From contig CAVSWU010000003.1 in NCBI GenBank assembly GCA_963731795.1, forward strand, positions 1,030,216 through 1,094,215: a stretch of 64,000 nt of DNA, given 5' to 3'. Position 1 is the first letter of the stretch. Every line of letters begins with the position of its first letter. The notes beneath the pieces were generated by a model. It had not been told where the DNA came from and did not search any database. It worked only from the letters and a program-made list of their open reading frames with translations. A program made the position numbers and the translations under genes. Shown here piece after piece: positions 1 to 64,000 of this stretch. Source of the DNA: an uncultured delta proteobacterium. Lineage in GTDB: Bacteria; Myxococcota; Myxococcia; Myxococcales; Myxococcaceae.

Positions 1-280
1 CACCATCAGCCGCTGGCCGCCCACCTGCGTCCCGGACTCGCTGCCGAGATCAATCGCCGTCACCCCGCCGTCCTTGTCCACCTTCAGCATCAGGTGGAGG
101 TTGGAGACGCTGGGGTCCTGGAATCTTCACCGCCGCCTGCGCGCCCGAGCCCACGATGACGCTCTCGGCGTCCGCGATGGTCTCCATCGTGGACCCATCC
201 GGTCCGGTGATGCGCAGCCTCAATCCGTTGTTCTTCGCCGCCGCCATGAGGATCGTTCCCTTCCGCCCTTCCACCCCCAA
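1..280 (-). CDS. N-terminal part of an FHA-domain protein (NfsG/GltG-like); continues beyond the left edge; has an apparent +1 frameshift near nt 95-100
   Basis: On the minus strand the ORF 50..280 reads ...RLRITGPDGSTMETIADAESVIVGSGAQAAVKI. After shifting one frame it continues DPSVSNLHLMLKVDKDGGVTAIDLGSESGTQVGGQRL, a textbook FHA core. The gene lies immediately downstream of the NfsF-like gene. Confidence 0.4.
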
Positions 281-305
281 AGAAAACGAGCGTCCCTTTC
301 AGACG

Positions 306-581
306 CTAGAGGTTGTCCACCGACTTCTGCAGCTCGGGGTTGAAGTTGTCGCGGACCTTGATGAGGCTCTGGAAGTTCGTCTTCTTCCGGTTGAGGACGT
401 ACGAGCCCTCTGGCTTGGTGAGCTCGCCCTCGACCGTCACGTCGGTGAAGTCGATGACCGTCTTCTTCTGGTAGACCGTCTTGTCCTCCTCCTGGATGAC
501 CTTCACCTCGTCCTTCTCCTGCGCCACCGCCGTGCCCGCCCACAACGCCGCCGCCACCACCGCCGATGCCAGTCGCTTCAT
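306..581 (-). CDS. small secreted protein (about 92 aa), NfsF/GltF-like by position
   Basis: MKRLASAVVAAALWAGTAVAQ is a signal peptide, followed by a Lys/Glu-rich mature part. It is the last small gene after the three TPR genes in the operon. Confidence 0.5.
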   Translation of the reverse strand: MKRLASAVVAAALWAGTAVAQEKDEVKVIQEEDKTVYQKKTVIDFTDVTVEGELTKPEGSYVLNRKKTNFQSLIKVRDNFNPELQKSVDNL

Positions 582-769
582 CCGCAGCCTCCGTTCACCC
601 ATCGGTTCTGACAGCGGGTCCTCGAAGAGGTTCCCGCGGTTCTTGCAGGAGTCGATCCAACGCCAATCCCTCGGATCGTAGGGAACTTGCCTCGCGCCTG
701 CCATGCCGCCCACCTGAGGAGTGGAAAAATCTTCCCACTGGAGCCGGTCATTTGTCCTATCCGAGCCCC

Positions 770-2272
770 TCAGGGCGCAGGCGAAGGAGCAGGCAAGCTC
801 CCTGGAGCGGGCTCTTTCGTGGGAGCCGCGGCCGGCGCCTCCGGCATCGGGGGGGCTGGAGCAGCGGAGTCCTCCCCGGCGGGAGCGGAGCCGCCAGGAG
901 CCGTGTCCCCCGCGGGTGCTGCCTCCTCGGGCGGAGTGCCCTCCTGGCGCGCCGCATCCTCCGAGACCTTGTCCAGCAGCGAGCTGTCACCGCTCGGGGC
1001 CTGGCGTGGCCTCCTTCTTCGGCTCGGCGGAGGCTGGGGCGCGCCGTTCTTCTTCATGGCCTGGATGCCCTGCACCTTCGCGTCGATCAGCTTCTTGTCC
1101 TGCGCCGAGGTGCTCTGCAGTCCCTTGCAGCGCTCGAGGAAGCTGAGCGCCTTGTCCCAGCCGGCCCGGTCCGCCGCGTAGGCCCAGCCCGCGCCGCAGA
1201 CGGCATCCGGCTGCTCCGGGCGCAGGGCGAGCACCTTCTCGAAGGCCTCGCCCGCGGCGAGGCCCTTCTTCGGATCGCGCCCCTTCTGCCCGTCGAGCGC
1301 GTAGGCGTAGTAGAGGTGGCTCTCGTAGGAGGTGGGATCCAGCTCCACCGCCTTGGCGAAGGCGCGCTCGGCCCCGCGTAGTCGCGGTAGGCCAGCGCCA
1401 TGGCGCCGATGTTCAGGTGGCCCGGAGCGAACTTCTCGTCGAGCGACACGGCCTTCTGGAACTGGGCCAGCGCGCGGGGACGATCGTTCAGCTTCAGGTA
1501 GATCATCCCCAGGTTGTTGTAGACGCCCGGATCGTTCTCCGCGAGCTTGCGCGCGTTGGCGCTCACCACCTCCGCGAGCCGGTACTGCCCCTGGTCGTAG
1601 TAGATGAGCGCCAGGTTCTTGTAGGCCTCGGGGTTGTCCTTGCTGCGCGCCAGCACGCGGCGGGCGGTGGCCTCGGCGAGGTCGAACTTGCCCGCCAGCC
1701 GGTACGCCACGGTGAGGTTGTTGAGCAGCGCCACGTCGTGCTCGTGGCCCGGCGCCTTGAGCGCCTTCTCGTAGAGGCGGATGGCGTCGTCGAACTTGTC
1801 CTGCAGCCGGTACAGCCGGCCCAGGTTCAGCAGCGTGGGCGGGTGGTTCGGATCCTTCGCGAGGACCTGCTCGTAGGCCGCCTGGGCGTCCGCGAGCCGG
1901 CCCTGGCGCTCGGCGATGAGCCCCAGGTTGAACTGCGCGTTGAGGCTCTGCGGCACCTTCGCCACGCACCTTTCGAAGCCCTTGCGAGCGGCGTCGTAGT
2001 CGCCCGCGTCGAACGCGGCGAGCGCCGCCGGGAAGAGGTCCTGCGGCTCCGGCTCCTCGCTGCGGGAGTGGCGGCCGAGGGCGGCGTGGATGCCGCGGTG
2101 GACGGAGCGGCGACCTGCGCGGGAGGCGGCTTGGGCGCCACTCCGCGACCGGCGTGGGCTTGACCTGGGGAGCCGTGGCGCACGCGGTCGTGAAGGCGAG
2201 CGCGGCGGCGGCGAGCGTGCGGGCGATCGTCACGGCGGTCTTCCTTGCGGATACCTTCAGAGAGGTGCGCAT
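770..2272 (-). CDS. TPR-repeat lipoprotein (NfsE/GltE-AglT-like); frameshifted, with at least 2-3 shifts (for example near 1380 and 2100-2230)
   Basis: The N-terminus MRTSLKVSARKTAVTIARTLAAAALAFTTAC has a lipobox, with GGGGGAGG upstream as an SD. The body (ORF 1087..1965) has classic TPR motifs (NLGRLYRLQDKFDDAIRLYEKAL, YNNLGMIYLKL). The C-terminus continues in the frame of ORF 770..4609 down to the stop at 770. Confidence 0.55.
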   Translation of the reverse strand: MRTSLKVSARKTAVTIARTLAAAALAFTTACATAPQVKPTPVAEWRPSRLPRRSPLRPPRHPRRPRPPLPQRGAGAAGPLPGGARRVRRGRLRRRSQGLRKVRGEGAAEPQRAVQPGAHRRAPGPARGRPGGLRAGPREGSEPPAHAAEPGPAVPAAGQVRRRHPPLREGAQGAGPRARRGAAQQPHRGVPAGGQVRPRRGHRPPRAGAQQGQPRGLQEPGAHLLRPGAVPARGGGERQRAQARGERSGRLQQPGDDLPEAERSSPRAGPVPEGRVARREVRSGPPEHRRHGAGLPRLRGAERAFAKAVELDPTSYESHLYYAYALDGQKGRDPKKGLAAGEAFEKVLALRPEQPDAVCGAGWAYAADRAGWDKALSFLERCKGLQSTSAQDKKLIDAKVQGIQAMKKNGAPQPPPSRRRRPRQAPSGDSSLLDKVSEDAARQEGTPPEEAAPAGDTAPGGSAPAGEDSAAPAPPMPEAPAAAPTKEPAPGSLPAPSPAP

Positions 2273-5200
2273 CCACGGCCGGGCCTCCCCCACCGAGGCG
2301 GCGGGCGCGGCGCGGTCTGCGGAGCCGTCTGCGGAGCCTGCCGCGGCTCTGGAGCCTTCGGAGCCGGCGCGGGAGCGGCGGGCTGCGGGCGCGGTCCCCG
2401 CGGTGGCGGAGGGCGCCATGCCCGGATCCTTGGCCACGTCCGAGGTGGCGAAGAACTCGCTGCCGCGGAAGGGCACCTGGCGCACCTGCGCGTAGGCGCC
2501 CGGCTGGTACTTGTTGACCTGCTCCTGCGCGGCGAGCGTCCACTCGTTGTAGATGGACAGCTCGTAGGCCTTGTCGAGCGCCTTCTCCAGCGCCTCGGTG
2601 GACTTGTCCTCCAGCGGGAGCGCCAGGTTCTCCAGCTCGCCGCGGTACATGGCCACCTGCTCCTCGTCCAGCCCCTTGGGATCCGGCGACTCGAGGATGT
2701 TGCGCGCGAAGTCCGCGTACGCGAGCCCGATGCGGGTGAGCGCCGCGATAGCCCACTCGCCCGACGCCGGTGGCGAGCACCGCCGCGTACTCCTTCTCCA
2801 CGCTGCTGGATCTCGCGCTGCTTGGCGACCAGATCGCGCTTGATGGTGGACACGCGGTGAAGCTTGATGTCCGTGTAGCGCTTCCACTGCGGCTCCAGCT
2901 CCAGGAAGCGCGCGTGGGCGTAGGCGTCCAGCACGCTCACGTCCTTGCTGTCCTCGTCGGACAGGCGGGCCCAGCCGCGCACCAGCTCGCCCTGCGCGCG
3001 CTCGGGCTCTGCGAGTTCTTGAGCTGCCGGTACGCGAGCAGCTCGCGGTACTTGGCCAGGTAGACCTGCCCGGCGTGGTGCGCGAGTCGCGGGCGTAGGT
3101 CTCCGCGAAGGAGGCGAAGGCCCTCGCGGCCTCGGCCCACTGCTCGTCCTTCTCGTGGACGAGCGCGATGTTGAAGGCGATCTGCGGCACGTCCTTGCGA
3201 TCCTTGAAGCGCGAGAGGTACGCGTTGTAGGCGGCGATGGCCTTCCGCGACTCGCCCACGCCCTCCCACCAGAGGCCCGCGTTGAAGAGGGCGTCCGCCA
3301 CCCAGCCTCGGCCTCCTTGACGAGCTGCTGGCGCTCGGCGGCGCGCTGCGCGAGCTTCGAGTCCTCGTCCTGCCCGTCCGCTTCTTCGCCGGGCCTTGGC
3401 GATCTTCTTCGCGCGCTTGCCCTTCTTCGCGTCCGGCCCGTCCCCGGCGGCCTCGTCGTAGGCGGCGACGAAGGCCTCGTACATGTCGGCGGACTTCTTG
3501 AACTCGGCCAGTCTTCTCGTAGAAGCCGCGCCAGCGTGTAGCGCACCTTCAGCGCGAACGGGCTGTCCGGGTACTCCTTGAGGACGCGCTCGCCGGCCTC
3601 GACGCCGCGATCCAGCTCGGTGGCCTCCTGGAAGATGATCATCGCGTAGGTGAGCGCGCGGTCCGCGTTCTCGGACCTCGGGAACTCGGTCACGAACTTG
3701 AGGAACAGCTCGGCGGCCTTCTTCGGGTTCTTCTCCTGGCGGTAGACGATCTCGTCCACCCACTTGTACTGGCTGCCCTCCACCACCTTGGCCACGCGCG
3801 CGGCGAAGTCCGTGCCCGGCTTGGTCAGCTTCTTGTTGGCCAGGAACTGGCGCGACAGCTTGTTCAGCTCGAACCACTCCTCGCGGCTCTCGAGCACGAA
3901 CATCGTGAGGTCCGCCGCGTCCCGCGAGCGCCGCTCCTCGGGGAACTTCTCGATGATCTCGCCGAAGCGCCGCGCCGCGTCCACGAAGTGGTTGCGGTCG
4001 TAGAGGATGACCGCCGCCTGGTAGCGCAGGTCGATCTCGTCCTGGTTGTCCGGGTAGAGCGTGTTGTACGTGTCGCAGGCGGCGACCAGGTGCTCCTCGA
4101 AGTTGCGTGAGCGGCTGCTCCTGCTGCTCCTTCGCGTCCTTCTTGACGATGCGCTTCTTCTCGACGTCGCCCTTGTACTTGTTCTCGTCGACCTTCTGGC
4201 CGTCCTTGAGGTCGCTCTTGGCGAGCTGGCCGCGCTCGATCTTCACCAGCTTGTCGTAGGCGAGCACCGCGGCGAACGCGGCGCTCTTGCGGTAGGACTC
4301 GTTGGAGACCTCGCGCGCCGAGTCGCGATCCGGGATCTTGAACGCCACCACGGCGTCGTACTGGGCGGCGGCCTCCTCCCACTCCTCCAGCGCCCAGAGG
4401 ATCTCCGCGTAGAAGAAGCGCAGGTTGAAGGCGGAGTCGGAGACGAACTCCGGATCCTCGCTGGAGGCGAACGCGTCCACGTACTGCTTGTAGATGTCGC
4501 GCGCGAGCCGGTACGTCTCCACCTGGCGCGTCTTCTGCGCCTCCTGGTGGTACTCGGTCACCATCACGCGCATGGCCTCTTCCGTGACGTTGAAGGCGTT
4601 GCGCAGCACGGGGCTTGTTGCCCGCGTTGGCCTGCCACCACGCGCCGCCCGGCCGGTACAGGTCCACCATCTTCTTCATCTCGGCGCGCACCTGCGTGCG
4701 CTGGCGCAGCCCCTCGTACGCGCGGACGATGGCCTGCTGGTACTCGGGCGCGCCCGGGCCCATGGGCTTGTCGTCGATGAGCACGCGGAACATCTTGATC
4801 GCGCTGTCGAAGTGGCCCGCGTCCGCCAGCCCCACGGCCGTCTTCGCGATGCAGCCGCGACTGCCGCTTCTCCGGCGCCTTCTGGCTTGAAGTAGGCGAT
4901 GGCCTCGTTCGGCTGATCGAGCTGCACGTAGAAGACGGTGAGATCGTTGAGCGCCTCGGTGCTTGCAGGTCGCCCAGCTCCTCGCCGCGAGTCTCCGCGT
5001 AGTCCACCACCTCGTGGAGCTTCTTGAGGCCGGCCTCGTAGTCGCCCGCGTTGTAGTCACACCACGCCAGCTTGTAGATGGCGTAGGCGTAGATCTTCGG
5101 CACCCCCGTGTCGCGCGCCTTCTCGTAGTTCTGCTTGGCGGGCATCAGCTTGTTGTTGTCGAAGTAGTAGTTGCCGAGCTGGATGTACGCGTCCGGCATG

Positions 5201-5854
5201 AACTGCGACTTGGGGAAGTCCTTGATCAGCTTCTCGTAGCGCTTCACCGCCTCGGCGCGGCGGCCCAGCTCGTCGAGGTTGTAGCCCAGCGAGAAGAGCA
5301 CCTCGTCGCGGCGCTCGTACTGCGGATAGTCGCGCAGGATGTCCTCGTAGAGGCTCATCGTCTCGCGCGCGGTAGCGCTCGCTGTCGCGGTGGTCCTCCT
5401 TCGGGGCTCCAGCTTCTCGCCGCGCGCGACGCGCCGCGTCGTAGTTCTTCTCCGCCTCCAGGTGCCGGTCCATCTCCAGGCGGTAGAGGTACTTGGACTT
5501 CTCCCGGTACAGCTCGGACAGGTGGTAGAGCAGTCCGCCTTGCGCGAGGTGCCGTCCTCGAGCTTCGGGATCAGGCGCTTGAGGCCCTCGATGGCCTCGT
5601 CGCGCTTCTTGTCCGCGAGCGCATCCTTCTGCGTCCTCGATGCGCGGCAGCTCGGCGAACTTGGCGTGGGCGGGGCTCATCCGCGCCGGGCCCTGCCGCT
5701 CGCTCCTCCGGCGCCGCCGGCGCTCGCCTGGACCTGGCCTTCGCGCCGCCGCAGGCCGCTTGGCCCGCCGCTGCTGCGCCGCCGCCTCGCCCACCCCCCC
5801 TGCGGCGAGCGCCACGCCCACCGCCAGGGCACCGAACCGAAGGACCGCCTTCAT
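2257..5854 (-). CDS. large periplasmic TPR protein of about 1200 aa (NfsD/GltD-AgmU-like), broken into at least 5 reading-frame segments
   Basis: The signal peptide is MKAVLRFGALAVGVALAAGG at 5854. Natural TPR-like segments lie in the frames of ORFs 5057..5854, 4564..5358, 3864..5060, 2257..3984 and 770..4609 (for example YIQLGNYYFDNNKLMPAKQNYEKA and ...RQVPFRGSEFFATSDVAKD). The in-frame garbage between these segments implies indels. Confidence 0.5.
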
Positions 5855-6067
5855 GCGAGCTCCTGCTCTGAAAGGACGCCGAAGCTAAGAGCGACCCACC
5901 GCTCTGAGAAGTGCTACGCCCGAGACAGGTGGCAACAATTCGCCCACCGCGCAGCGGGCTTCCGCACTGAACGAACGACGCACCGCGATCAGGGGAGCGC
6001 GCTCCGAGACGGCGGTGCGTCAGGTACTGACCGACTGCGCGACGCGGATCGCGCCTGGCCGTCGCCC

Positions 6068-7611
6068 TACTCCTGGGCGCTCGCGGGACAGCCGCGCTTG
6101 AGCGTGTACTGGTAGTAGCCGATCTCGTCGATCCAGAACTCGCCCTGGAACTTCCAGTAGTTCCAGTCCGCGCCCGGGCATGGCCGGGCGGTAGAGCGAC
6201 TGGCGCGTCAGCAGCTTCTTCTGGTCCACGCCCGGCCGCAGCAGGTCCTTCTGGTCCAGCGCCGTCTGCACGCGGATGATCTCCGTCTGGTCGCCGAAGG
6301 TGCGCAGGTTGTCCGCGGCCTCCTGCAGGCGGCTCTTGGCCAGGGTGCCGCCCACCTGCAGCAGCGTGTGCGCAGCGTCCTCGAGCGCGGCCACGGTCTC
6401 GGGCGCCAGCGGCGTGCCCTTCCACGCCGACGTGCCGGTGATGGCGCGCTTCTCCTCGTCCATCTGCTCGCAGCCCGCGCATCACGCTCGCGGATGCGCT
6501 CGTTGTTGCGGATCCACAGGTACACCGGGCGCGGCAGCCGCCGGTTCTCCGGGCGGACACCAGGTCGAAGGCAGGCGATCAGCTCCATGTCCTCGCCGTG
6601 AAGCGGCTTGAGCTGCTTCGCCATGGGCCCGTAGACCTCGTCGAAGGCGGCCAGCGTCGTCTTCGACCTCGTCGAAGAGGCAGCTGTAGTAGTAGACGGT
6701 CGCCTTGAGGATCCACGACTCGGGCTGGAAGGCGCCGGCGAACTGCGGCGCGTGCAGCGCCTGCAGGCTGCCGAGCGCCCCGCCGAAGTCCTCGTTCTGG
6801 AAGCGGGCGAAGCCGTTCTCGAAGAGCGCCTGATCCCAGTAGCGCGAGTAGCGCGGCACGGCCTCGTAGGCCTCGCTCGCCTCCTCGTACTCGCCGCGCC
6901 CGTAGTGCAGGCGCCCCAGCCCCAGCAGCGCGAGCTCGCGCGTCTCCTTGAGCTCGATCTGCTGCTCGCCCTGCTGCTTCAGCACCGTCTTGAAGGCGGA
7001 GATCGCGGCCTTGTCCAGCGCCTCCGCCTCACCCGGGCGCCCCGGGAAGCGCGGGTCCGCCAGCACGACGCCCAGCAGGTAGTGCGCCTTGGCGTAGACG
7101 CGGCTGCTCGGGCGGCACCGCCTCCAGCAGCGCGCGCGCCTCCTCGAAGCTGGCCGCGGCGCTGGCTGATGGTGCCCACCAGGTAGTTGATGCGCGCGAG
7201 CACCTCCCGGGGCAGCGTGACCCACTGATCCCTCACCTCTTCCGTGTAGGCCTGGTTGAGCAGGCTGGGGATCAGGTTCTGCTCGTCGAGCTGCTGCTGC
7301 ATGTCGACGAGCCCCTCCACCGCCTCGAGGTACGAGGGGTGCGAGGGCCCCGCCTTCACGATGGCGGCGTAGGTGACGAAGGCGCTCACCGGCAGCCCCT
7401 TCTGCGCGAAGGTCTGCGCCAGGTAGTACTCGGCCTTGCCCTTGATCTCCGGGTCCGAGGCGCCCTCGGAGATCTCGAAGAAGAGCGGCGCGGCGGTGTC
7501 GAGATCGCCCGCGTTGAAGGCGGCGAGCGCGCGGTTGTACGTGGTCACGTCCTGCGCGAGCGCCGCGAGCGGCGCCAGGGCGACGGCGAAGAGTGCGAGC
7601 AGTCGGGACAT
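6068..7611 (-). CDS. TPR-like periplasmic protein of about 510 aa (NfsC/GltC-like); at least 4 frameshifts
   Basis: The signal peptide is MSRLLALFAVALAPLAALAQD. Natural segments are successively in ORFs 6979..7611, 6482..7225, 6208..6624 and 6020..6463. The true C-terminus ...ADWNYWKFQGEFWIDEIGYYQYTLKRGCPASAQE* is in a fourth frame and ends near 6068. Confidence 0.5.
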
Positions 7612-7621
7612 GGCGTTCCCC

Positions 7622-8861
7622 TCAGAAGAGGATCGAGAAGCCGGCGTAGAAGCTCACGTTGTTGAGGACGTCCGAGGAGGGCTCCGCGACCAGGTCCCTC
7701 CCGAGGATGATGTCCTCGCGGTAGTTCTTCTTGGTCTTGGGGTCCACGCCGTCGAACTTCTGGAACTGGCAGCTCCCGCTGAGCCCCAGGTTCTCGAAGG
7801 ACTGGTTGCCGGCGCGCGCGGACTCCATCTTCTCGAAGTCGGCCAGGTTGCAGCCGTCCACCCGGTCCACGCGCGCGGTGTAGACGAGATCCCTCACCTC
7901 GAGGCGCAGCGCGTACGAGTCACCGAACTGCACGCGGAAGCCACCGCCCACCGAGCCCAGGAACTTGAGCCCCGTGTCCCCGAAGCGCGCTGGGACGTTG
8001 TACGTCTCGCCGTCCACCTCGTTGGAAACCTGCGGCCGGATCAGGTGCCGCGTCCCGCCGAGGCCCGCGCCGCCGCTGAGGATCAGGCTGAACTGCGCCA
8101 GGTGGTTCGTCGTAGAAGGCGAACTTGCCGTAGAGCGGCGTCACCTCGACGCCCGCCTGCGCGCCCCACGACAGCAGCAGCGACGAGGCCGCCTGCGCCT
8201 GCTCGCGCACCTTGTCGATCAGCTCCAGGTTGAAGGGGCTCTCGTTGGAGTACCAGTTGTACTGGCCCGTCAGCTGGAGCGCGAAGTTCTCCTGCAGGTG
8301 GTAGATGTAGTTGAGCGCGCTGCCCACGTGGTTGGTGAACTTGCCGTTCACCTGCACCGCCAGCGGGTAGAGCGCGAACTCGTGCCGGCCCTCGTCCGCG
8401 AAGGGCTTCTTCTGGACGATGTGCACGGAGACGTTCGGGTTGTAGAGCGGCGCGCCGTTCACCAGCCGCTGCTGCTCGGGCGTCGTCGTGCGCAGCTCCG
8501 TGTCCACCTCCGCCACCGTGGGCGCGTCCTTGGCCGGCTTCGACTCGGCGGGCGCGGCCGCCTCGGCCGGTGCCGGAGCCTGCTCGGAGGCAGGAGGCTG
8601 GGCGGCCTCGAGCTCCTCGTCCTCGTCTTTCTTGGAGCGCGCACGCGCCGCGGGCTGGGGCTGATCGCCGGGCACGGCCGTCCCCATCTCGCGAGCAGGC
8701 GAGGACTCGGGGCGCGCCCCGGGCGCCGCCGGAGCTGCCGCCTGGGGCGGAACGGAGCCCTCGGCTCCCGGCGCGGGCACCGTGGGTTCGGATTTCACGA
8801 CGGTGGGCTCGGCCCCGACGACCGTCGACAGGAGGACCGCGAAGGACAGGATCGTTCGCAT
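7622..8861 (-). CDS. outer-membrane beta-barrel protein of about 410 aa (NfsB/GltB-like); one frameshift near 8090
   Basis: The signal peptide is MRTILSFAVLLSTVVGA. An Ala/Pro-rich linker is followed by the barrel. The N-terminal part (ORF 7920..8861) is natural up to ...LYGKFAFYDE, and the C-terminal part (ORF 7622..8017) ends ...YAGFSILF with a terminal Phe. Confidence 0.55.
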
Positions 8862-8866
8862 GGGTT

Positions 8867-9688: not shown

Positions 9689-9725
9689 GGCGCATCCAAG
9701 TGCACATCCGATGCCCCACGGGCAA

Positions 9726-9757
9726 GATGCACGAGCCCCCCGACCGTGCATTTTTTT
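9726..9757 (+). terminator. intrinsic-terminator-like hairpin (ATGCACG-N11-CGTGCAT) followed by T7, oriented on the plus strand
   Basis: The sequence is gATGCACGagccccccgacCGTGCATTTTTTTcac. A T7 run is rare at this GC content. No annotated plus-strand gene lies upstream of it. Confidence 0.3.
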
Positions 9758-9859
9758 CACGGACGAAGCCCCCATCGCCCGGTGGATGACGTTTCTGTCA
9801 GCTCAAGCGGGAGCCGCAAGGCACGCAACGGGCACACCCCGCGCGGGTTCCACGGTAAG

Positions 9860-10249: not shown

Positions 10250-10259
10250 GCCGCTCCGG

Positions 10260-11270: not shown

Positions 11271-11352
11271 GGCGACACTACCCTAGCGTGACATGGGAGC
11301 GCGCCCAAAGAGGCGCCAAGTGCATGCCTCGTTGTGACAGAATCCGTGAACC

Positions 11353-11937: not shown

Positions 11938-12059
11938 GCGCGAGCCGGGAGGCGCTCCTCACGTTCAGGGCGAGTTACTCCACCCTTCCCGCCCGGGCCG
12001 GCTCGCAGAGGTGGCAGAGCCTGAGCGGGAGCTGGGCATCCCATGGGGCCCGGTAGTCC

Positions 12060-15048: not shown

Positions 15049-15073
15049 TCGGTGCGGCGGCGAAACCCGAAGA

Positions 15074-50009: not shown

Positions 50010-50062
50010 CAAGTAGGCTTTTCGTCCTCCCTGCTGCGCGCCCGACAGCCTCCGAGGTGCTC

Positions 50063-52596: not shown

Positions 52597-52602
52597 GCCC
52601 TC

Positions 52603-54575: not shown

Positions 54576-54698
54576 GGCGGCTGGGGGATGTAACAGCCCG
54601 GAGCCCCTTCGGGAACGGTTTGGTTGCCTGCCTGCCTCCCCTGCCCTCAGCGCATCCTCTTTGGGACCCACACGGGGGTTGCCTATACTCCGGCGCCA

Positions 54699-56432
<1,734 letters not shown>

Positions 56433-56599
56433 CGGCCCACCCGGCAGCGGCCTGCTCGCCTGCCAGGCCTCACGGCGGCCTCTTCAGGGGTCGTTTGAGG
56501 CCATATAATTCAGTCTTTTCAGGCGTTTGCACCTGGTAGGAAGCGAGCCAATTTACCCCCCAGGCCCCGCCGTTAGACTCCGGGGCCCCCGGGGACCCG

Positions 56600-57667
56600 A
56601 TGCTCTCGACCTCCCAGCTCACCTTCCGCGAGAAGACCCTCGCCGACCCGCATGAGGCGGCGGACTCACCGCGCCGTCCCGAGCGCGAGGCGCTGCTCCA
56701 GGCGCGCATCAAGGATCTCAAGCTCCACCTGAAGGGCACGGCCCTGGAGCGGTTCATCCAGCAGCTCTACGCCGAGCTCGAGGCCAAGGGCATCTCCTTC
56801 CGGCCGGAGTGCTACCTGTCGGATCAATGGGGCTGCCCCTCCGGCGTGCCGGTGATCGGGCTGCCGTTCTATCTGGCGGACCCGCGGCTGCACTCCATCG
56901 AGGCGGAGCTGAGCGGCGACGCGGAGACAGAGCGCGAGATCCTCATGTACCTGCGCCACGAGGCAGGGCACGCGTTCAACTACGCCTACCGCCTCTACGA
57001 CACGGACGAGTGGCGGAAGATCTTCGGGGACTACTCCAAGCCCTACAACGAGAACTACAAGCCACGGCCGTTCAGCCGGAAGTACGTGGCGCACATCTCC
57101 GGCTGGTACGCGCAGAAGCACCCGGACGAGGACTTCGCCGAGACGTTCGCGGTCTGGCTGACGCCGGGGCTGGATTGGGGCAAGCGCTACGCGGGCTGGG
57201 GCGCGCTCAAGAAGCTCCAGTACGTGGACGAGGTGATCAAGCGCGTGGGCCGTACGCCGCCGCTCGTGCAGCTGGCCGAGCGGGATCTCGACGTGGAGGA
57301 CATGGAGGAGACGGTGCTCGATCACTACCGCCAGCGCCAGCTCGAGGAGCGCGTGGAGCTGTCGCTGCGCGAGCACCTGGATCAGGATCTGCTAGGGCTG
57401 TTCGAGCCGCCGGACACCGCGCCCGCCAGCGCCGAGACGCTCATCCGCGCCGAGCGCCAGTCCCTGATCCAGTCGGTGACGCAGTACAGCGGCGTGGGCC
57501 GCCCGGTGGTGGTGTCGCTGGTGGACCACCTGCTGGAGCGCGCCACCGCGCTGCGCCTCTCCATCCACCTGGACAAGACGCGCGAGTACCTCACCAAGCT
57601 CACCTCGTTGGTGACGGCGCTGGCGATGAACTACCTCTACACGGACCGCTTCTTCGAAGTGGACTGA
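56600..57667 (+). CDS. putative zinc-dependent peptidase of the family usually paired with ATP-grasp ligases (Peptidase_Mx-like)
   Basis: It has the HEAGHAF (HExxH) motif. It lies 70 nt upstream of the ATP-grasp gene. Confidence 0.55.
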   Translation: MLSTSQLTFREKTLADPHEAADSPRRPEREALLQARIKDLKLHLKGTALERFIQQLYAELEAKGISFRPECYLSDQWGCPSGVPVIGLPFYLADPRLHSIEAELSGDAETEREILMYLRHEAGHAFNYAYRLYDTDEWRKIFGDYSKPYNENYKPRPFSRKYVAHISGWYAQKHPDEDFAETFAVWLTPGLDWGKRYAGWGALKKLQYVDEVIKRVGRTPPLVQLAERDLDVEDMEETVLDHYRQRQLEERVELSLREHLDQDLLGLFEPPDTAPASAETLIRAERQSLIQSVTQYSGVGRPVVVSLVDHLLERATALRLSIHLDKTREYLTKLTSLVTALAMNYLYTDRFFEVD

Positions 57668-57736
57668 GCCGCGCGGACGAAAAGTGCGGCGCGCCCGGGT
57701 GCACCGGGCGTGCCGAGGGCTTACACTTGAGAGGTC

Positions 57737-58813
57737 ATGCCGGTACCGCCTCTCAAGATCGCCATCCTGCACTACCAGCCGGACGGAGAGCCGGTGGACC
57801 CCGTCGTCACCCAGGTGGGCGAGGCCCTCAAGCAGCTGGGCCATGAGGTGTGCACCATCGCCGTGAGCGACCGCGTCTTCGACATCCTGCACGAGATCGA
57901 TCGCTCGAAGTGCGGCCTGGTGTTCAACCTCTGCGAGACGTTCGCGGAGGACTACCGGATGGAGGTGAACGTCGCGGCGCTGATGGAGATGGCGCGGGTG
58001 AAGTTCACCGGCTCGGGGACGGCGGGGCTGCTGCTGGCGCAGGACAAGATCCTCACCAAGCAGCTGCTGGAGTACCACGAGATCCCCACGGCCGACTTCG
58101 CCACCTTCGACGGCGTCACCGTGGAGACCCATGGGGGCCTGGAGTTCCCGCTCATCGTGAAGCCGTCGCGCAGTGATGCGTCCATCGGCATCGGGAAGAA
58201 GTCGCTGGTGCGCACGTGGGAGGAGCTGACGCGACGGGTGCAGGAGATCCGCAAGGAGCTGCAGGACGAGGCGCTCGCGGAGGAGTTCATCGAGGGGCGC
58301 GAGGTATATGTGGGCGTGATCGGCCCCAAGGAGATGCCGGAGATCCTCCCGATCGTCGAGCTGGACTTCGGCAACTGGGACAAGAGCAAACCGACCATCT
58401 CCGACCGGGAGGTGAAGTTCGGCCCTGAGACGGAGGGCTCTCCGAAGCTCGTGATCGCGAGGAACATCCCGCCGGAGCTGCGCGAGCGCGTGGAGCGGGC
58501 CGCCCTGCTGGCCTACCGGGCGCTCAAGCTGCAGGACTACGCGCGCATCGACTTGCGCATCTCGGAGGAGGGAGATCCGTACGTCCTCGAGGTGAACCCG
58601 AACCCGTACCTGGAAGACAAGAGCGAGCTGGCGCTGGGAGCCCGTGAGAAGGGCATGTCCTTTACGCAGCTCGTGGGGCGCATCCTCGAGTCGGCGGCGA
58701 AGCGCTACGGGCTGCTGCAGAAGGCGGAGAAGACGCCGGCGGCCTCGAAGGCCGAGCATCCCGCCTCGAAGGCCGAGCCCGAGATTCCGCCCACGGCGAA
58801 CGCAGCCGGCTGA
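57737..58813 (+). CDS. ATP-grasp ligase (D-Ala-D-Ala ligase / RimK-like fold)
   Basis: The N-terminus is a pre-ATP-grasp, and the central domain is FPLIVKPSRSDASIGI...EFIEGREVYVGVIG...LEVNPNP. Confidence 0.65.
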   Translation: MPVPPLKIAILHYQPDGEPVDPVVTQVGEALKQLGHEVCTIAVSDRVFDILHEIDRSKCGLVFNLCETFAEDYRMEVNVAALMEMARVKFTGSGTAGLLLAQDKILTKQLLEYHEIPTADFATFDGVTVETHGGLEFPLIVKPSRSDASIGIGKKSLVRTWEELTRRVQEIRKELQDEALAEEFIEGREVYVGVIGPKEMPEILPIVELDFGNWDKSKPTISDREVKFGPETEGSPKLVIARNIPPELRERVERAALLAYRALKLQDYARIDLRISEEGDPYVLEVNPNPYLEDKSELALGAREKGMSFTQLVGRILESAAKRYGLLQKAEKTPAASKAEHPASKAEPEIPPTANAAG

Positions 58814-58856
58814 GCCGGAGCGGCCCTCCCCCGCCCCCCCGCTCTCCGGGAGAGGC

Positions 58857-59258
58857 TCACGGCTGCCGGAAGGCCTCGCTCACGGCGGCAGTGTCCCCAA
58901 AGACACGGACGGACACAGCCTTCCCGCCACGCAACGTCCAGACGTGCACCCAGGCGTTCTCATAGGTGCGACCGGTCGGCTTTGCTCGCACCTTCTCCCA
59001 ACCGAGCACCACCACCTGCTCGCCCTGGGCGATGAACTCCCGGGGCTCGAATGTCAGCGACTCGCTCGAGCCCTTGATGGCGCTCACGAGCCGCCGGATG
59101 CCCTCATGCCCCTTGAACTCGCCAGCCAGGGGCACATGGGCCGGGTATGGGTTGGCCCAGACGATGTCCGTCGAGAACCCGGCCAGCACGGCCTCGAGGC
59201 TCCCGCTGTCATAGGCCGCGTAGACGTCCTTCACCGCTCTCAGGTTGGACTCGATCAT
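58857..59258 (-). CDS. SnoaL-like / NTF2-fold protein (133 aa)
   Basis: It has the size and pattern typical of polyketide-cyclase-like NTF2 proteins. Its start is 3 nt after the stop of the upstream LLM gene. Confidence 0.5.
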   Translation of the reverse strand: MIESNLRAVKDVYAAYDSGSLEAVLAGFSTDIVWANPYPAHVPLAGEFKGHEGIRRLVSAIKGSSESLTFEPREFIAQGEQVVVLGWEKVRAKPTGRTYENAWVHVWTLRGGKAVSVRVFGDTAAVSEAFRQP

Positions 59259-59260
59259 GC

Positions 59261-60310
59261 TCAGCCCGCGGCGACACGGCGCTCCGTAGCAGGTACCTGG
59301 GTGCTCGGGGACAGGCGCACCGAGGCCTGCTTCAACGCCAGGTCGATGTGGTGGAACTCCTCTTCGTGCGGAGGAACATCGAGGATGAGGGTGTCGATCC
59401 CCCGCTGCACCAGTGAGTTGATGAGCGCGGCGACCTGGGCGTGATCGCCCACGAAGTACGGGCAGTCGGCCTTGAAGTTGCGGAACGGCTCCAGCCAGAA
59501 GCCTTGCCGCGCCGCGGCGGCTCCCTCCGCGACCATCTTCATCCGCCACTTCCACTCGGCGTCGGTGTTGCGCATGGAGAGCTCGAGCACGCTCTGCCCC
59601 AGAGGATCCTCGGGGAACAGGGCGCGAGCGGCCTCCCAGGCCTCGGCCTCCCGCGGACGGGTGATGATGCCGAAGTGGACGCCACGCACGCCCGCGCGCA
59701 GCCCCTGCTCCAGCGTGGCCGGCAGCATCTGCATGCTCACCGCGCCGAGCGCCCCCGCCGTCCGCAGGGCCGCCTCCGACTGGCCAGCCAGCAGCAGGCC
59801 CGGCTGGAGCGCCTGGGGAGTCCTCGGCAGGAGCTGCAGGTTGGACACGCGGTAGTGCTTCCCCTCGTACGTGACGGAAGGCTCGGCGAGCAACCGCTTC
59901 ATCACCTCGGCGTACTCGCGCAGCCGATCGTACCGCTCGTCGTGCGGCAGCCGATCGTCCATGGACTGCTGGTAGCTGAGCGCCGCGCCCGTGACGAGGT
60001 TCACGTACGTCCGGCGCCCGTAGAGGTGGGCGAACGAGGAGATGAACTTCGCTGCCGTGAACGGGTGCATGTAGATGGGGTTGATGGCCACCAGCGGCGA
60101 GAGCTGCTTCGTCTCGGCCATCACCCGCTGCGCCACCACCCAGGGCTCGATGATGACATCGTTGCCCGTGAAGATGAGCAGGCCGGTGTAGCCGTAGCGG
60201 TCGCTCAGCCGCATGACGGTCTCGATGTTCTTCCAGTACAGCGATTCGTCCGGGGTGCGAGGGCTGACCGTGAAGAGCTCCACTGCACCGTGAGCCAGTT
60301 CGAGTTTCAT
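59261..60310 (-). CDS. LLM-class (luciferase-like) flavin-dependent oxidoreductase (349 aa)
   Basis: It has a TIM-barrel LLM pattern and a strong SD (AGGAGG) 6 nt upstream. Its ATG overlaps the FMO stop. Confidence 0.6.
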   Translation of the reverse strand: MKLELAHGAVELFTVSPRTPDESLYWKNIETVMRLSDRYGYTGLLIFTGNDVIIEPWVVAQRVMAETKQLSPLVAINPIYMHPFTAAKFISSFAHLYGRRTYVNLVTGAALSYQQSMDDRLPHDERYDRLREYAEVMKRLLAEPSVTYEGKHYRVSNLQLLPRTPQALQPGLLLAGQSEAALRTAGALGAVSMQMLPATLEQGLRAGVRGVHFGIITRPREAEAWEAARALFPEDPLGQSVLELSMRNTDAEWKWRMKMVAEGAAAARQGFWLEPFRNFKADCPYFVGDHAQVAALINSLVQRGIDTLILDVPPHEEEFHHIDLALKQASVRLSPSTQVPATERRVAAG

Positions 60311-61389
60311 GCTGCCTCCTGCTGAGGGTGTGAGGGGCCCACCGGAATGGCGCGGCCCGAGCGCTCGGCGATATGGGAGGCGAGGAAGGCGGCATCCCGC
60401 CCCACGCCTCCGAGAAGAGAAGAGTTGGCCCGGTAGAGCCACTTGAGGCCGAGGAAGTAGAGCCCCGGGCGCGCGGTGACGCCCCGTGAATGAACGGGCC
60501 TGCCGCCCGCGTCGAGCACGGGCACCTCCAGCCAGGAGTAGTCCGGGCGGAAGCCGGTGGCCCAGACGATGGCGTCCACCTCCAGCGCCTGCCCATCCAC
60601 GAAGGTGACGCGGTGCCCCTCCACGTCCTTCACCCGAGGCCGCAGCACCAGGCCGTGCATGCGCGCCAGCTCCTCGGGCCCCGGGCCGATGATGCCATCC
60701 GGCCCCTGGCTCATCCGCCGGCCCAGCCAGGAGTCCACGGTGACCTCCGTGAGCCGCAGCAGGTGGGCCCACCAGAAGTAGTCCCGCCCCAGCATGCGCC
60801 GCGGGCTGGCCGCCGTCCTCCCGAGCGCGAGGTGCACCTCGTGGCTGGCCGCCAGCTCCCGGGCGATGCCCGCCCCGGAGTTGCCGCAGCCGACCACGAG
60901 CACCCTCCCCCGCGGGAGCTGCGACGGGTTGCGGTACAGGCTGCTGTGGAGCTGAACCAGCTGGGGGCTGGCCCGCTCCAGGCTCACGGGCAGTAGCGGC
61001 CGCGTGAAGGGCCCCGTCGCGCAGACGACGTTGCGCGCCTCGAAGACGGTGTCCGCCGTACGCACCACGTAGGCGTCCCCCTCCGCGCGCACGGAGCTCA
61101 CCCGCGTCCCCAGCCGCAGGGGCAGCTCGAAGGCCCTGGCATAGCTCTCGAGGTAGTCCGCCACCTCGTCCTTGCTGGGGAAGGTCCACGGCTCCCTCGG
61201 GAACGGCATCCCAGGGAGATCGTTGTACGGGCACGGCGTGATGAGCCGGAGCGAATCCCACCGGGATCGCCAGGAATGGCCCACCTGCTCCGCCGCCTCC
61301 AGGATGAGGAAGCGTCGGCCCTGCCGAGCGAGCTGGTAGCCCAGGGCGAGGCCGGCCTGACCTCCGCCGATGATGAGGACGTCGTGCAT
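60307..61389 (-). CDS. FAD/NAD(P)-binding flavin-containing monooxygenase-like oxidoreductase (361 aa)
   Basis: It has VLIIGGGQAGLALG (FAD GxGxxG) and a second VLVVGCGNSGAGIA (NADPH) motif. Confidence 0.65.
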   Translation of the reverse strand: MHDVLIIGGGQAGLALGYQLARQGRRFLILEAAEQVGHSWRSRWDSLRLITPCPYNDLPGMPFPREPWTFPSKDEVADYLESYARAFELPLRLGTRVSSVRAEGDAYVVRTADTVFEARNVVCATGPFTRPLLPVSLERASPQLVQLHSSLYRNPSQLPRGRVLVVGCGNSGAGIARELAASHEVHLALGRTAASPRRMLGRDYFWWAHLLRLTEVTVDSWLGRRMSQGPDGIIGPGPEELARMHGLVLRPRVKDVEGHRVTFVDGQALEVDAIVWATGFRPDYSWLEVPVLDAGGRPVHSRGVTARPGLYFLGLKWLYRANSSLLGGVGRDAAFLASHIAERSGRAIPVGPSHPQQEAA

Positions 61390-61400
61390 GATCCTCTCCG

Positions 61401-64000
61401 TTACCGAGGCTCGGCGCGCGCCACGGACATCCGCAGCGTCGCCGCCAGGGAATCCACGCCCGACGAGGCGAGGAGCGAGTAGTGGTCTCCCGCGAGGGTG
61501 CGCGTCTCCAGGCGGCCCACCCAGGGACGCCAGCCCGCGTCCTCCGCGCGCGCCAGGGGATCGTCCGCCGCCCGCAGGGACACCACGGGGACGTCCACCT
61601 TCCGAGGCGTCCATTGATCCATGGCCCGCGTGTGGGCCTCGAAGACCCCCAGCAGGCGCTGGAGCTGCGGCAGGTCCACATCTCGCGCCACCAGGTCGGC
61701 TTCGTGCGCCTGCTCCAGCGCGAAGGCCAGCCGCGCCTCGGCCTTCAGCGACCGAAGCTGCGCCACTGGCAGGGTGAAGGGCTTGCCGCCCGTGCTGGCG
61801 ATGTCCTGGATGAACCAGGCCACGCGCTCCGCGTCATCCACCCGAGCCAGCTTCCCGGGCGCTGGGCTGTCGATGAGCGCCACCAGCGCCACCTCCTGCC
61901 CGAGTTCACGCAGCCGACGCGCCATCTCCAGCGCGACCAGTCCGCCCATGGACCAACCGCCCAACAGGTACGGCCCCGAGGGCTGCACCGAGCGCACGGC
62001 CTCGACGTACTCGTGTGCCATGGCGACCAGGTCCTCCCGAGGCTCCTGATCCCCGAGGAAGCCCCGCGCCTGCAGTCCATAGACGGGGCGCTCCCGGCCG
62101 AACCGCTGCGCCAGCTCGCGGTAGCACAGGACATTGCCGCCCACCGGGTGCACGAGGAAGAGCGGCCTGCCCTGGCCCTGCGAGTGCAGGAGCACCAGCG
62201 GCGACCACGCGGCGGCGGGCGCACTGCCGCGCACCAGGGACGCGAGGTGCGCGAGCGTGGGCTCCTGCACCAGCGCCGTGAGTGGGAGCTCCCGCCCGAA
62301 CTGCTGGCGGATGCGCCCCATCACCCGCACCAGCGCGAAGGAGTGCCCGCCCAGCTCGAAGAAGTTGTCATGCCGGCCCACCTGGGAGACGCCCAGCACC
62401 TCTTCCCAGATACGGGCCAGCGCCTGCTCCAGCTCGTCCCTCGGGGCCTCGAGGCCACGCTCGCGCCGGGCGCCTGGCTCCTCCGGGGCCGGGAGCGCCT
62501 TGCGGTCCACCTTGCCATTGGCCGTCAGGGGCAGCCGCTCCAGCGGGAGGAAGAGCGAAGGCACCATGTAGCGCGGCAGCTTCGTCTCCAGGTACGCGCG
62601 CAGCTGCGCGAGGGTGTCGGCGGGATCGCCGTCAATGACGACATAGGCCACCAGGCGCTTGTCCCCCAGGCGCTCCCCGTGGGCCGTCACCACCGCCGCG
62701 CGCACGGCCGGGTGCCGCTCCAGGACGGTCTCGATCTCGCCCAGCTCGATGCGGTAGCCCTGCACCTTCACCTGGAAGTCCGCGCGGCCCTGGAACTCGA
62801 TCGAGCCGTCTGGCAGGGAGCGCCCCAGATCTCCCGTCCGGTAGAGGCGCTCCCCCGTCACAGGGTGGCGGACGAAGCGCGCCTCCGTCTTCGCCGAGTC
62901 CTTCCAGTAGCCCTTCGCCAGGCCCACGCCGGCGATGAACAGCTCGCCGGTGACCCAGGTGGGGCGCGGCGCCAACGCCTCATCGAGCACATGGAAGCGC
63001 TGGTTCTTCAGGGGCTTGCCGTAGGGGATGCTCTGCCAGCCGGGATCCACCCGGTCGATGGGGTGGAGGATGGACCAGATGGAGGCCTCGGTCGCCCCGC
63101 CCAGGCTCATCACCTGGATGCCGGGGCGCAGGGCTCGGATGCGATCCGGCAAGGCCACGGGGATCCAATCGCCGCTGAGCATCACCGTGCGCAGCGCCAG
63201 CTCCCCGAGCCACTCCTTCTGTCCCTCCGCGTATTCCACGAGGAGCTGCATGAGGGCCGGCACCGAGTTCCACAGGGTGACCTTCTCCATCCTGAGCAGC
63301 TTCAGCCAGTGGGCCGGATCCTTGGCGGCCCCGGGCGCGGGCAGGACGAGGGCGCCGCCCGCGGCGAGCATGCCGAAGAGATCGTAGACGGACAGATCGA
63401 AGGTGAGCGCCGAGAGCGCGAGCACCCGATCCGAGGGCCCCACGCCGAACCGCTCGTTGAGATCCACGAGGGTGTTGGCCGCGCCGCGATGGTCGATCAT
63501 CACGCCCTTGGGCTCACCCGTGGAGCCCGAGGTGAAGATGACGTAGGCCAGATCCTCCGGCCGCTGGACGGAGCGGAGGCACGCGTCGCTCTCCCCCTCC
63601 AAGGTCTTCTCGGAGACGGCGATCCGCTGGATGCCCTCGGGCCAGGGGATCCGCGCCTCCAGCCAGGGCTGGGTGAGGACGATGCGGACCTCGCCCTGCC
63701 GCAGCAGGTGGTGGATGCGCTCCGTCGGCCACTCCGGATCAATCGGCAGGTAGGCAGCACCCGCGCCGAGCACGCCGAGCGCGGCCACCACCTGCTCCCA
63801 GCCCTTCTCCATGACGATGGCCACCAGGGTGTTGGGGACCGCGCCGAGCGCGCGGAGCCGGTGGGCCAGCTGGTGGGCCCGTCGCTGCACGGTGCCGTGG
63901 CTGAACGTGCCACGCGGCTCGATGACGGCCGGGTGATCCGGCCGGGCCTCCGCCTGCGCGGCGACGAGCTCGTGGAGGAGCACCTGGGGAATGGGAGCCT
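61401..64000 (-). CDS. terminal NRPS module: adenylation - PCP - thioesterase (C-terminal 860+ aa; the gene continues past the right edge)
   Basis: The A-domain cores are LPIDPEWP (A2), YVIFTSGSTGEPKGV (A3), SGDW..., GELFIAGVGLAKGY (A5), YRTGDL (A7), KVQGYRIELGEIE (A8) and LPLTANGKVDRKAL (A10). The PCP motif is FFELGGHSFAL and the TE motif is GGWSMGG. Confidence 0.85.
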   Translation of the reverse strand, partial: APIPQVLLHELVAAQAEARPDHPAVIEPRGTFSHGTVQRRAHQLAHRLRALGAVPNTLVAIVMEKGWEQVVAALGVLGAGAAYLPIDPEWPTERIHHLLRQGEVRIVLTQPWLEARIPWPEGIQRIAVSEKTLEGESDACLRSVQRPEDLAYVIFTSGSTGEPKGVMIDHRGAANTLVDLNERFGVGPSDRVLALSALTFDLSVYDLFGMLAAGGALVLPAPGAAKDPAHWLKLLRMEKVTLWNSVPALMQLLVEYAEGQKEWLGELALRTVMLSGDWIPVALPDRIRALRPGIQVMSLGGATEASIWSILHPIDRVDPGWQSIPYGKPLKNQRFHVLDEALAPRPTWVTGELFIAGVGLAKGYWKDSAKTEARFVRHPVTGERLYRTGDLGRSLPDGSIEFQGRADFQVKVQGYRIELGEIETVLERHPAVRAAVVTAHGERLGDKRLVAYVVIDGDPADTLAQLRAYLETKLPRYMVPSLFLPLERLPLTANGKVDRKALPAPEEPGARRERGLEAPRDELEQALARIWEEVLGVSQVGRHDNFFELGGHSFALVRVMGRIRQQFGRELPLTALVQEPTLAHLASLVRGSAPAAAWSPLVLLHSQGQGRPLFLVHPVGGNVLCYRELAQRFGRERPVYGLQARGFLGDQEPREDLVAMAHEYVEAVRSVQPSGPYLLGGWSMGGLVALEMARRLRELGQEVALVALIDSPAPGKLARVDDAERVAWFIQDIASTGGKPFTLPVAQLRSLKAEARLAFALEQAHEADLVARDVDLPQLQRLLGVFEAHTRAMDQWTPRKVDVPVVSLRAADDPLARAEDAGWRPWVGRLETRTLAGDHYSLLASSGVDSLAATLRMSVARAEPR

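Follow-up and report, generated by a model that had tools for sequence, protein, structure and literature searches.

The window, which is the whole 64,000-nucleotide stretch of DNA analysed here, comes from a Hyalangium-like myxobacterium and carries roughly 55 genes, about 16 of which are mis-predicted as fragments. Relative to five or six genomes of Hyalangium and other Archangiaceae (Illumina isolates, MAGs and JGI/ENA contigs), at least 75 frame-disrupting indels, within 16 genes, are private to the window. An indel is called where only the window differs and the relatives agree in nucleotide alignments, with two to six relatives at each coding site, and events are assigned to coding sequence or spacers by gene intervals. 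Frame jumps are traced by tblastn with the intact proteins of relatives as queries. The genes concerned, and the events called in each, are as follows.

1-262, minus strand: FHA-like gene; one indel (118)
309-620, minus strand: small secreted protein; member of the block 1 operon
770-2290, minus strand: NfsE-like; 7 indels
2291-5868, minus strand: NfsD-like; 26 indels
6034-7612, minus strand: NfsC-like; 11 indels
7625-8948, minus strand: NfsB-like; one indel (8104)
17264-18330, minus strand: HupE; one clear indel, +1 at 18074
19406-20142, plus strand: small SLT lytic transglycosylase; +1 at 19585 and 19616, and a compensated -2/-1
22701-24720, plus strand: transglutaminase; +1 at 23481, 24446 and 24628, a compensated -2/+2 pair at 24351/24360, and at least one further break
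25109-25997, plus strand: SigB-like sigma factor; +1 (extra C) at 25266
26120-27889, plus strand: HEAT protein; +1 at 26601, 27106 and 27706
37337-39083, minus strand: Cys-rich repeat lipoprotein; -1 and +2 within 6 nt (37636/37641), net +1, one frame break
45379-47616, plus strand: GAF-HisKA sensor kinase; +1 at 45718, 45775 and 46510
50063-51104, plus strand: CheB copy 3; +1 at 50243 (CC to CCC)
52606 to about 54575, minus strand: ABC-F ATPase; +1 at 54228 and 54542, relative to L028 alone

A first-pass annotation made from the sequence had reported frame jumps in a set of named genes. In every one of these, successive tblastn HSPs fall in different frames of the window and the nucleotide alignments agree. 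Its practical concern over trust in protein predictions is fully supported: those made here are not to be trusted. Its total of 25 to 30 frameshifts is too low, and the roughly 12 shifts that it saw in the nfs-like operon become about 45, because the eye misses short stretches that are out of frame. The density averages about one frame-breaking indel per kb and reaches about 6-7 per kb where the damage is densest. HSP coverage in tblastn itself under-calls coding events, since HSPs are trimmed at frameshifts.

The indels lie in kb-scale blocks, at 118-8104, 18074-19616, 23481-27706, 37636-37641, 45718-46510, 50243 and 54228-54542. The clustering noticed earlier is borne out by over-dispersion in 1-kb bins (variance/mean 2.64, p=1.6e-7), 13 of which are empty where 6.2 are expected. 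Blocks 1 to 3 and the two control stretches are described below.

118-8104, minus strand: block 1, nfs/glt-like operon; 46 genic frame-disrupting indels and 5 in spacers (637, 5869, 5926, 5934, 7614)
18074-19616, unstranded: block 2, HupE and the small SLT gene; private indels also in the spacers 19121-19450 and 20326-20751, where they are indistinguishable from natural non-coding variation
23481-27706, plus strand: block 3, the 3' two-thirds of the transglutaminase gene, the SigB-like sigma gene and the HEAT gene, with upstream spacer events at 25052-25107
8105-17800, unstranded: clean control; NfsA-like, two ORFs, GT2 island, L3-like and two hypotheticals, used as the substitution-rate baseline
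38860-45700, unstranded: clean control; HNH, SelA, MCP and SLT-TPR

The earlier description of the damage as gene-specific does not hold. The blocks are regional, spanning several neighbouring genes together with intergenic spacers, and the edges of block 3 lie inside genes, 780 nt into the transglutaminase gene (23481) and 183 nt before the HEAT stop codon (27706). The G+C content is similar in dirty and clean blocks, so it was rejected as the cause of the blocks.

The zones previously listed as free of breaks remain so in the alignments, with few exceptions. The stretch 9860-17200 has just two events, both non-coding (15004 and 16669), and 27897-37300 has, where testable, a single compensated -1/+1 pair (34994/35010), while 39161-45270 is clean. 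The stretch 54699-64000 is clean in the alignment with L028, the sole relative available for the ABC-F gene, as far as 56836, and beyond that point by full-length Pfam domains and a continuous frame plot. Other clean stretches are 8105-9797 and 20756-23480. The alignment of relatives gives no coverage of 11953-14998, 29228-33300, 41165-42860, 51116-52602 and 56836-64000. Two apparent breaks prove to be gene boundaries: the three successive minus-strand frames at 58.9-61.6 kb are three genes with full-length SnoaL_2, luciferase-like and flavin monooxygenase domains, and 29.2-30.9 kb holds two genes. At 69% G+C, the raw ORF list and a whole-ORF GC3 filter are uninformative, and they were dropped in favour of the frame plot and homology. 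Rfam finds no RNA genes within the window.

At the orthologous loci, a comparison that the first-pass annotation had proposed as a check, the relatives have intact genes, and a base is gained or lost in the window alone (about 75 coding sites). When the indels alone are reverted, 9 of 14 genes give a single-frame, full-length match with no internal stops, and each of the other five retains one residual, missed break. The NfsD-like protein, which matches at 57-91% in pieces before repair, then aligns over query residues 122-1244 without a stop or a change of frame, at 88% identity. Single frames are likewise recovered for SigB (1-296), the HEAT protein (1-589), the GAF-HisKA kinase (query 1-705) and the ABC-F protein (query 1-656, 92%). 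In SigB, the extra C stands at 25266 exactly as had been proposed, and its removal brings back the conserved ...LVTSNLRF... motif. In CheB copy 3, the insertion falls in the conserved D-x-x-M-P-x-M-D-G receiver motif. For the ABC-F gene, two repairs suffice where at least three breaks had been claimed, and the lesion at atctgcctctgcc, read earlier as a loss of 2 nt, is a gain of 1 nt. A 5-nt "insertion" in HupE at 17841 lies in a variable region and is probably natural; reverting it produced a new break.

These results bear on whether the shifts exist as lesions at all. That the window is correct and the relatives wrong, or that the indels are an alignment artefact, could be argued from the Ala/Pro-rich low-complexity linkers, where gap placement is ambiguous and the relatives disagree on the "missing" base. 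This explanation is effectively refuted: five or six assemblies, made independently in separate projects and on different platforms, concur and encode intact proteins, the tblastn frame jumps do not depend on the placement of DNA gaps, and repair raises identity, as in the NfsD-like protein. Programmed recoding, by which ribosomal frameshifting or transcriptional slippage would restore the proteins in vivo, has nothing in its favour beyond the presence of +1/-1 shifts, and can hardly be entertained, since the roughly 75 sites share no common slippery motif and lie mostly outside runs. The orthologues in all relatives are single-frame at the same positions, which means that the shifts are not conserved.

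A genuine, very recent pseudogenisation would leave 16 genes dead, among them the nfs-like operon, SigB, ABC-F, the kinase and CheB3. The frameshifts are physically present in the sequence, and they are concentrated in an operon that might be lost whole. None of the affected genes is provably essential, since model species can do without a SigB-type sigma factor, Nfs-like machinery for sporulation or motility, one of three CheB copies and ABC-F. Even so, pseudogenisation is very unlikely. The densest block has no excess of lineage-specific substitutions at codon positions 1+2 (18/2515 against 23/2218 in its clean neighbours, Fisher p=0.27). Window-unique changes at sites invariant among the relatives amount to 0.9/0.5/1.8% at codon positions 1/2/3 in this block and to 1.6/0.5/1.6% and 1.8/0.4/2.4% in the clean neighbours. 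The natural indel:substitution ratio in bacteria is about 1:5, with indels mostly in repeats (PMC5854121). If the indels were natural, at a substitution:indel ratio of 5:1, about 106 changes at positions 1+2 would be expected (P=4e-26). Excess substitutions are at most 0.04% per site against 0.64% for indels, a ratio of at least 17 indels to each excess substitution.

The affected genes also keep a normal codon-position signature of selection and, once the indels are repaired, have no nonsense codons. The dN/dS values, suggested earlier as a test for decay, are 0.16-0.59 for broken genes (0.17 for SigB and 0.16 for ABC-F) and overlap the 0.04-0.47 of intact genes; relaxed selection, in the form of a non-synonymous excess or a dN/dS near 1, is not seen in the broken genes. 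Moreover, the blocks ignore gene borders, and one gene carries up to 26 lesions, though one suffices to kill.

The spectrum of the indels is unlike those of natural bacterial mutation or of pseudogenes. Ninety per cent are 1 nt long, and insertions outnumber deletions 49:24 overall and 36:7 among fully supported events. Many of the deletions in variable linkers have the weaker backing of three to four of five relatives, and some may be natural. Outside block 1, every one of the 16 clear events in coding sequence is +1. The earlier impression that the lesions are not obviously in homopolymers is correct: run lengths at insertions are the same as at random positions, and 62% of inserted bases are unlike both neighbours, against 57% at random positions. 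In the pseudogenes of Burkholderia leaf-nodule symbionts, as in the window, several frameshifting indels occur per gene and adjoining genes are affected, but there 396 deletions (7,421 nt in total) exceed 300 insertions (1,340 nt in total), sizes are long-tailed, genes have about 4-5 indels each and non-synonymous change is accelerated (PMC6054270). In the window the bias is towards 1-nt insertions outside repeats, contrary to what natural indels show (PMC6054270, PMC5854121), and neither such acceleration nor an association with repeats or microhomology is seen. A real and recent insertion-biased process, such as error-prone repair or recombination synthesis, that struck kb-scale tracts without substitutions and killed about 16 genes is highly improbable.

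Very probably the organism itself carries no such mutations, and the frameshifts are indel errors that a long-read assembly left in its consensus. The technical cause is inferred from the comparison with relatives. The SLT-TPR product equals a database protein (P0001) encoded on a contig of 4,253,742 bp, a length that suggests, indirectly, an assembly made from long single-molecule reads. Where depth or polishing was locally poor, random 1-nt insertions and fewer deletions may have persisted into the consensus, so that surviving errors would form kb-scale blocks beside error-free stretches, and gene callers would then break each affected gene into fragments. Gene-fragmenting indels have been documented in long-read assemblies (Watson & Warr 2019, as cited in PMC12007338). 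In those treated with Kastor, likewise, genes are split into adjoining fragments, the errors are detected against close relatives, substitution errors are few, and correction lengthens proteins and raises similarity (PMC12007338); Kastor automates, in effect, the comparative repair made here.

The platform is less certain. Nanopore R9.4 errors are mainly homopolymer deletions (PMC12007338), whereas those of the window are mainly non-homopolymer +1 insertions, blocked rather than evenly spread. The absence of a homopolymer signal argues against a profile typical of nanopore, not against error as such. In PacBio CLR, errors are stochastic and insertions commonest, with substitutions, insertions and deletions at 22:45:33 (PBSIM3, PMC9713900), and the window resembles this spectrum in its predominance of insertions, its slight context dependence and its few substitutions. 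That spectrum is one of raw reads, and a consensus with normal coverage and polishing loses nearly all such errors, so that very low effective depth or unpolished segments would have to be assumed locally. With less certainty, then, the platform may have been PacBio-CLR-like and the blocks may reflect depth or polishing. Block-wise error would be unexpected for an evenly covered, polished isolate, and requires the additional assumption of uneven depth, bridges left unpolished or a mixture of strains.

Another artefact is conceivable, in which the consensus is collapsed from two or more co-assembled strains of a MAG, with spurious indels where the strains differ. Strain-variable segments would naturally give blocks, the source record is unannotated in NCBI/ENA, like many MAGs, and some lesions are either messy multi-base rearrangements (4959-4965 and 6467-6486) or close -1/+1 pairs, of which 11 span at most 20 nt. 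Such a collapse is nevertheless unlikely, since strain-variable segments should show extra mismatches, and window-unique substitutions are not raised in the blocks; at most sites the lesion is a clean +1 insertion standing alone. No independent sequence of the same species was found: the members of the P0001 cluster are 92-93% identical and hence belong to other species, a metagenome scan with an NfsD-like fragment yields just 82-83% relatives, and a search with the sigma factor finds no near-identical copy.

The first-pass annotation had left the choice between error and decay to the reads. Error was rightly among its options, but the comparative evidence already decides strongly for it: the question can be decided without reads, by setting private indels against private substitutions and by examining the pattern across codon positions, the spectrum of indels and whether repair restores the genes. 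The importance of the finding is practical rather than biological, in that the proteins need repair before use. Analyses of pseudogene counts, pan-genomes, gene families or operons based on this assembly would mislead, for instance by making the nfs-like sporulation/motility operon, SigB or ABC-F seem lost. Once polished or comparatively repaired, the sequence is usable.

The frame plot of GC3 has many short frame switches in 1-9800 and in other places, and long unbroken frames elsewhere. When intact proteins of the relatives are matched to the window by tblastn, consecutive match segments lie in differing frames in every gene that the first-pass annotation had listed as broken, and that list is therefore right. 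In the DNA alignment of 1-9900 with five relatives, the frames break because single bases are gained or lost in the window alone, amid well-conserved sequence in which the relatives are unanimous. A filter on blastn gaps that required agreement of two or more relatives, making up no less than 60% of those covering the site, leaves 112 window-specific indels, of which 94 have lengths not divisible by three. The frame-disrupting indels within genes number 73, or at least 75 with two more in ABC-F relative to its single relative. The earlier figure of 25-30 was too low, chiefly owing to the nfs-like operon, in which there are about 45 lesions where about 12 had been counted.

Frame-disrupting indels by gene
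FHA-like, 1 (the repaired fragment matches Pfam FHA)
NfsE-like, 7
NfsD-like, 26
NfsC-like, 11
NfsB-like, 1
HupE, 1 clear indel
Small lytic transglycosylase (SLT), 2 and a compensated pair
Transglutaminase, 3, a compensated pair and at least one further break
SigB-like sigma factor, 1
HEAT, 3
Cys-rich lipoprotein, 1 net
GAF kinase, 3
CheB3, 1
ABC-F, 2 (one relative)

The sigma lesion is an extra C, as originally identified. In ABC-F, where at least three shifts had been read, two repairs suffice, and the lesion atctgcctctgcc, taken for a 2-nt loss, is a 1-nt gain in the alignment. At the NfsB-like/NfsC-like stop/start junction (7612-7625), a 4-nt window-only deletion leaves 8 nt where the relatives have TGA-N12-ATG; it alters the spacer and a putative ribosome-binding site, changes no reading frame and is probably another consensus error. 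A hidden break suspected at 58.9-61.6 kb was rejected, the region holding three separate intact genes.

The relatives comprise 26 syntenic loci from a genome scan with the intact ORF 8870-9802, the closest being a Hyalangium MAG (L001, 91% amino acid identity) and then H. versicolor H56D21 (L003, 87%), together with H. minutum DSM 14724 (L027), a JGI contig (L028), H. rubrum (L030) and JGI and ENA contigs (L031, L032) found by homology or by exact-protein look-up. Coverage is by at least two relatives in 1-9800, 15000-29200, 33300-41150 and 42860-51100, and by one in 9800-11950 and 52600-56800; 11953-14998, 29228-33300, 41165-42860, 51116-52602 and 56836-64000 were checked by frame continuity and domain completeness only. 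The zones first described as clean are clean wherever relatives allow the test, and elsewhere have continuous frames and full-length domains. G+C, 69% in the window, is similar in dirty and clean blocks and does not tell them apart. Gene content is typical of myxobacteria, with an nfs/glt-like operon, Ser/Thr kinases, a bacterial major vault protein, three tandem CheB genes and an NRPS end. The NfsA-like gene has about 60-100 nt more at its 5' end (window 9689) in L001, L003, L004 and L006 than in the window and L002, either natural length variation where the operon begins or a different choice of start codon. Other features are as follows.

11953-14998, about 3 kb without counterpart in any fetched relative
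13852-14949 (-), ORF with a DUF2304 domain (aa 3-100) joined to a glycosyltransferase domain of family 2 (aa 121-243), which may be a natural fusion or may reflect an unseen error that merged two genes
25109-25997 (+), 'sigma-32-like' gene, orthologue of Myxococcus xanthus SigB (95% amino acid identity over 243 residues), extremely conserved across Myxococcaceae and Archangiaceae
30860-33253 (-), full-length, intact homologue of the eukaryotic major vault protein (matches to Pfam Vault, Vault_2/3/4 and MVP_shoulder, the best with E of 3e-45); H. minutum also encodes one, near RluA (L027 21469-)
37337-39083 (-), Cys-rich repeat lipoprotein, the Cys-repeat lipoprotein of the first reading (566 residues, of which 86 are Cys; lipobox LALAFSIVGC; recurring C-x-x-x-x-C-C-x-x-x-C motifs); it matches no Pfam family, and its orthologues in H. 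minutum and L028 are about 545-550 aa long
40754-42913 (+), methyl-accepting chemotaxis protein gene between SelA and the SLT-TPR gene, a gene-content difference from the relatives
45379-51104 (+), GAF-HisKA sensor kinase and three tandem CheB (receiver-methylesterase) paralogues, an unusual module kept in H. minutum, H. rubrum and metagenome contigs (L027, L028, L030)
51013-52593 (+), Ser/Thr kinase gene between CheB3 and ABC-F, likewise a gene-content difference

The chemotaxis-protein and Ser/Thr-kinase genes lie in stretches of the window to which none of the fetched relatives aligned. ABC-F occupies this position in L028 only, and is absent there from H. minutum and H. rubrum.

The lesions are over-dispersed: across 39 bins of 1 kb the variance is 2.64 times the mean (p=1.6e-7), and 13 bins are empty where 6.2 would be expected. 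They fall in three blocks and some small groups.

118-8104, block 1, about 6-7 lesions per kb
18074-19616, block 2
23481-27706, block 3, about 3 lesions per kb
37636-37641, 45718-46510, 50243 and 54228-54542, small groups

Block 1 covers six genes in a row, spacers included. Block 3 begins 780 nt inside the transglutaminase gene, crosses a spacer and the sigma gene and ends 183 nt upstream of the HEAT stop, while the flanking genes (MoxR, DUF58-like, HD_5) are free of lesions. The blocks are regional, not gene-specific.

Four tests, of private substitutions, selection, repairability and spectrum, agree in direction: error, not decay. At sites invariant among relatives, private substitutions at codon positions 1/2/3 are 0.9/0.5/1.8% in block 1 and 1.6/0.5/1.6% and 1.8/0.4/2.4% in adjacent indel-free blocks; no excess is found in block 1 at positions 1 and 2 (18/2515 vs 23/2218 in clean blocks, Fisher p=0.27). 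Indels in wild-type bacteria occur about one-fifth as often as substitutions, chiefly in simple repeats, and single-nucleotide events make up only 20-36% of them (PMC5854121). Were the 51 block-1 indels natural, about 106 private changes would be expected at positions 1 and 2, where 18 are seen (P=4e-26); excess substitutions are at most 0.04% per site (upper 95% bound) against 0.64% for indels, a ratio of indels to excess substitutions of at least 17:1, where the natural ratio is about 1:5. A collapsed multi-strain consensus in a metagenome-assembled genome, a variant of the technical reading, is improbable, as the blocks carry no extra mismatches. The signature of selection is kept: block 1 retains the pattern pos2 < pos1 < pos3, and Nei-Gojobori dN/dS over in-frame pieces is 0.16-0.59 in broken genes (SigB 0.17, ABC-F 0.16, kinase 0.20) and 0.04-0.47 in intact ones, the higher Nfs values being plausibly inflated by short out-of-frame stretches. 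SigB, with 95-97% protein identity across genera, is equally conserved on either side of its lesion.

When the inferred indels alone are reverted, the fragments become single-frame full-length matches to the relatives' proteins, with no internal stop codons in the restored genes. NfsD-like, in five pieces at 57-91%, becomes one match over query residues 122-1244 at 88%; SigB is restored over 1-296, HEAT over 1-589, ABC-F over 1-656, the kinase over 1-705, SLT over 1-245 and CheB3 over 1-347, and the Cys-rich lipoprotein and NfsB-like likewise. The one residual break in each of five repaired genes is a lesion missed or mis-specified by the conservative filter.

Among the 73 in-gene events, 66 are 1 nt in size and insertions outnumber deletions 49:24, or 36:7 where every covering relative backs the event; outside block 1, all 16 clear coding lesions are +1 insertions. 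The inserted base differs from both neighbours in 20 of 32 scored insertions, and random positions are 57% singletons. Run lengths thus match random positions and the insertions are not homopolymer-length errors, as first noted. Inserted bases track base composition (G 14, C 10, T 5, A 3), and in 11 cases two opposite or complementary events are no more than 20 nt apart. In genuine bacterial pseudogenes, 396 deletions remove 7,421 nt and 300 insertions add 1,340 nt, sizes are long-tailed and each gene has a few indels (PMC6054270), whereas the window is insertion-biased and 1-nt-dominated, with up to 26 indels in one gene. In mismatch-repair-deficient lines, single-base indels fall in homopolymers (PMC5854121); here they show no association with them. 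On each count the spectrum is the opposite of natural pseudogene and mutation spectra. Natural variation may account for some of the weakly supported deletions in variable Ala/Pro-rich linkers and for all of the spacer indels.

On this comparative evidence, consensus indel error in a long-read assembly is the best explanation of the frameshifts, and a technical rather than biological origin is very probable. The window SLT-TPR protein is a database protein (P0001) on a single 4,253,742-bp contig; a contig of 4.25 Mb from a GC-rich myxobacterium points to long reads, whose assemblies are known to carry indels that fragment genes (PMC12007338). Random read insertions left in the consensus would give a stochastic, insertion-dominated, substitution-poor profile such as the window has, and effective depth or polishing that varied on a read-length scale would give blocks a few kilobases long with edges unrelated to genes. 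Candidate causes are low-depth stretches, long-read bridges between accurate segments, or segments out of reach of short-read polishing. PacBio continuous-long-read errors, regarded as stochastic, have a substitution:insertion:deletion ratio of 22:45:33 (PMC9713900), while nanopore consensus has a homopolymer-deletion profile (PMC12007338, PMC9713900), unlike the non-homopolymer insertions of the window, whose profile resembles PacBio more and would suggest that platform. The specific scenario of platform and depth stands at about even chances.

The frameshifts of the first-pass annotation are thus real features of the assembly and more numerous than it held, while gene-specific decay of essential-looking genes is unsupported, since the blocks are regional, substitutions are not in excess and the genes are repairable. 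There is no biological novelty in the breaks; gene calls in 118-8104, 18074-19616 and 23481-27706 are to be repaired before any use, and those in 37636-37641, 45718-46510, 50243 and 54228-54542 need the same repair.
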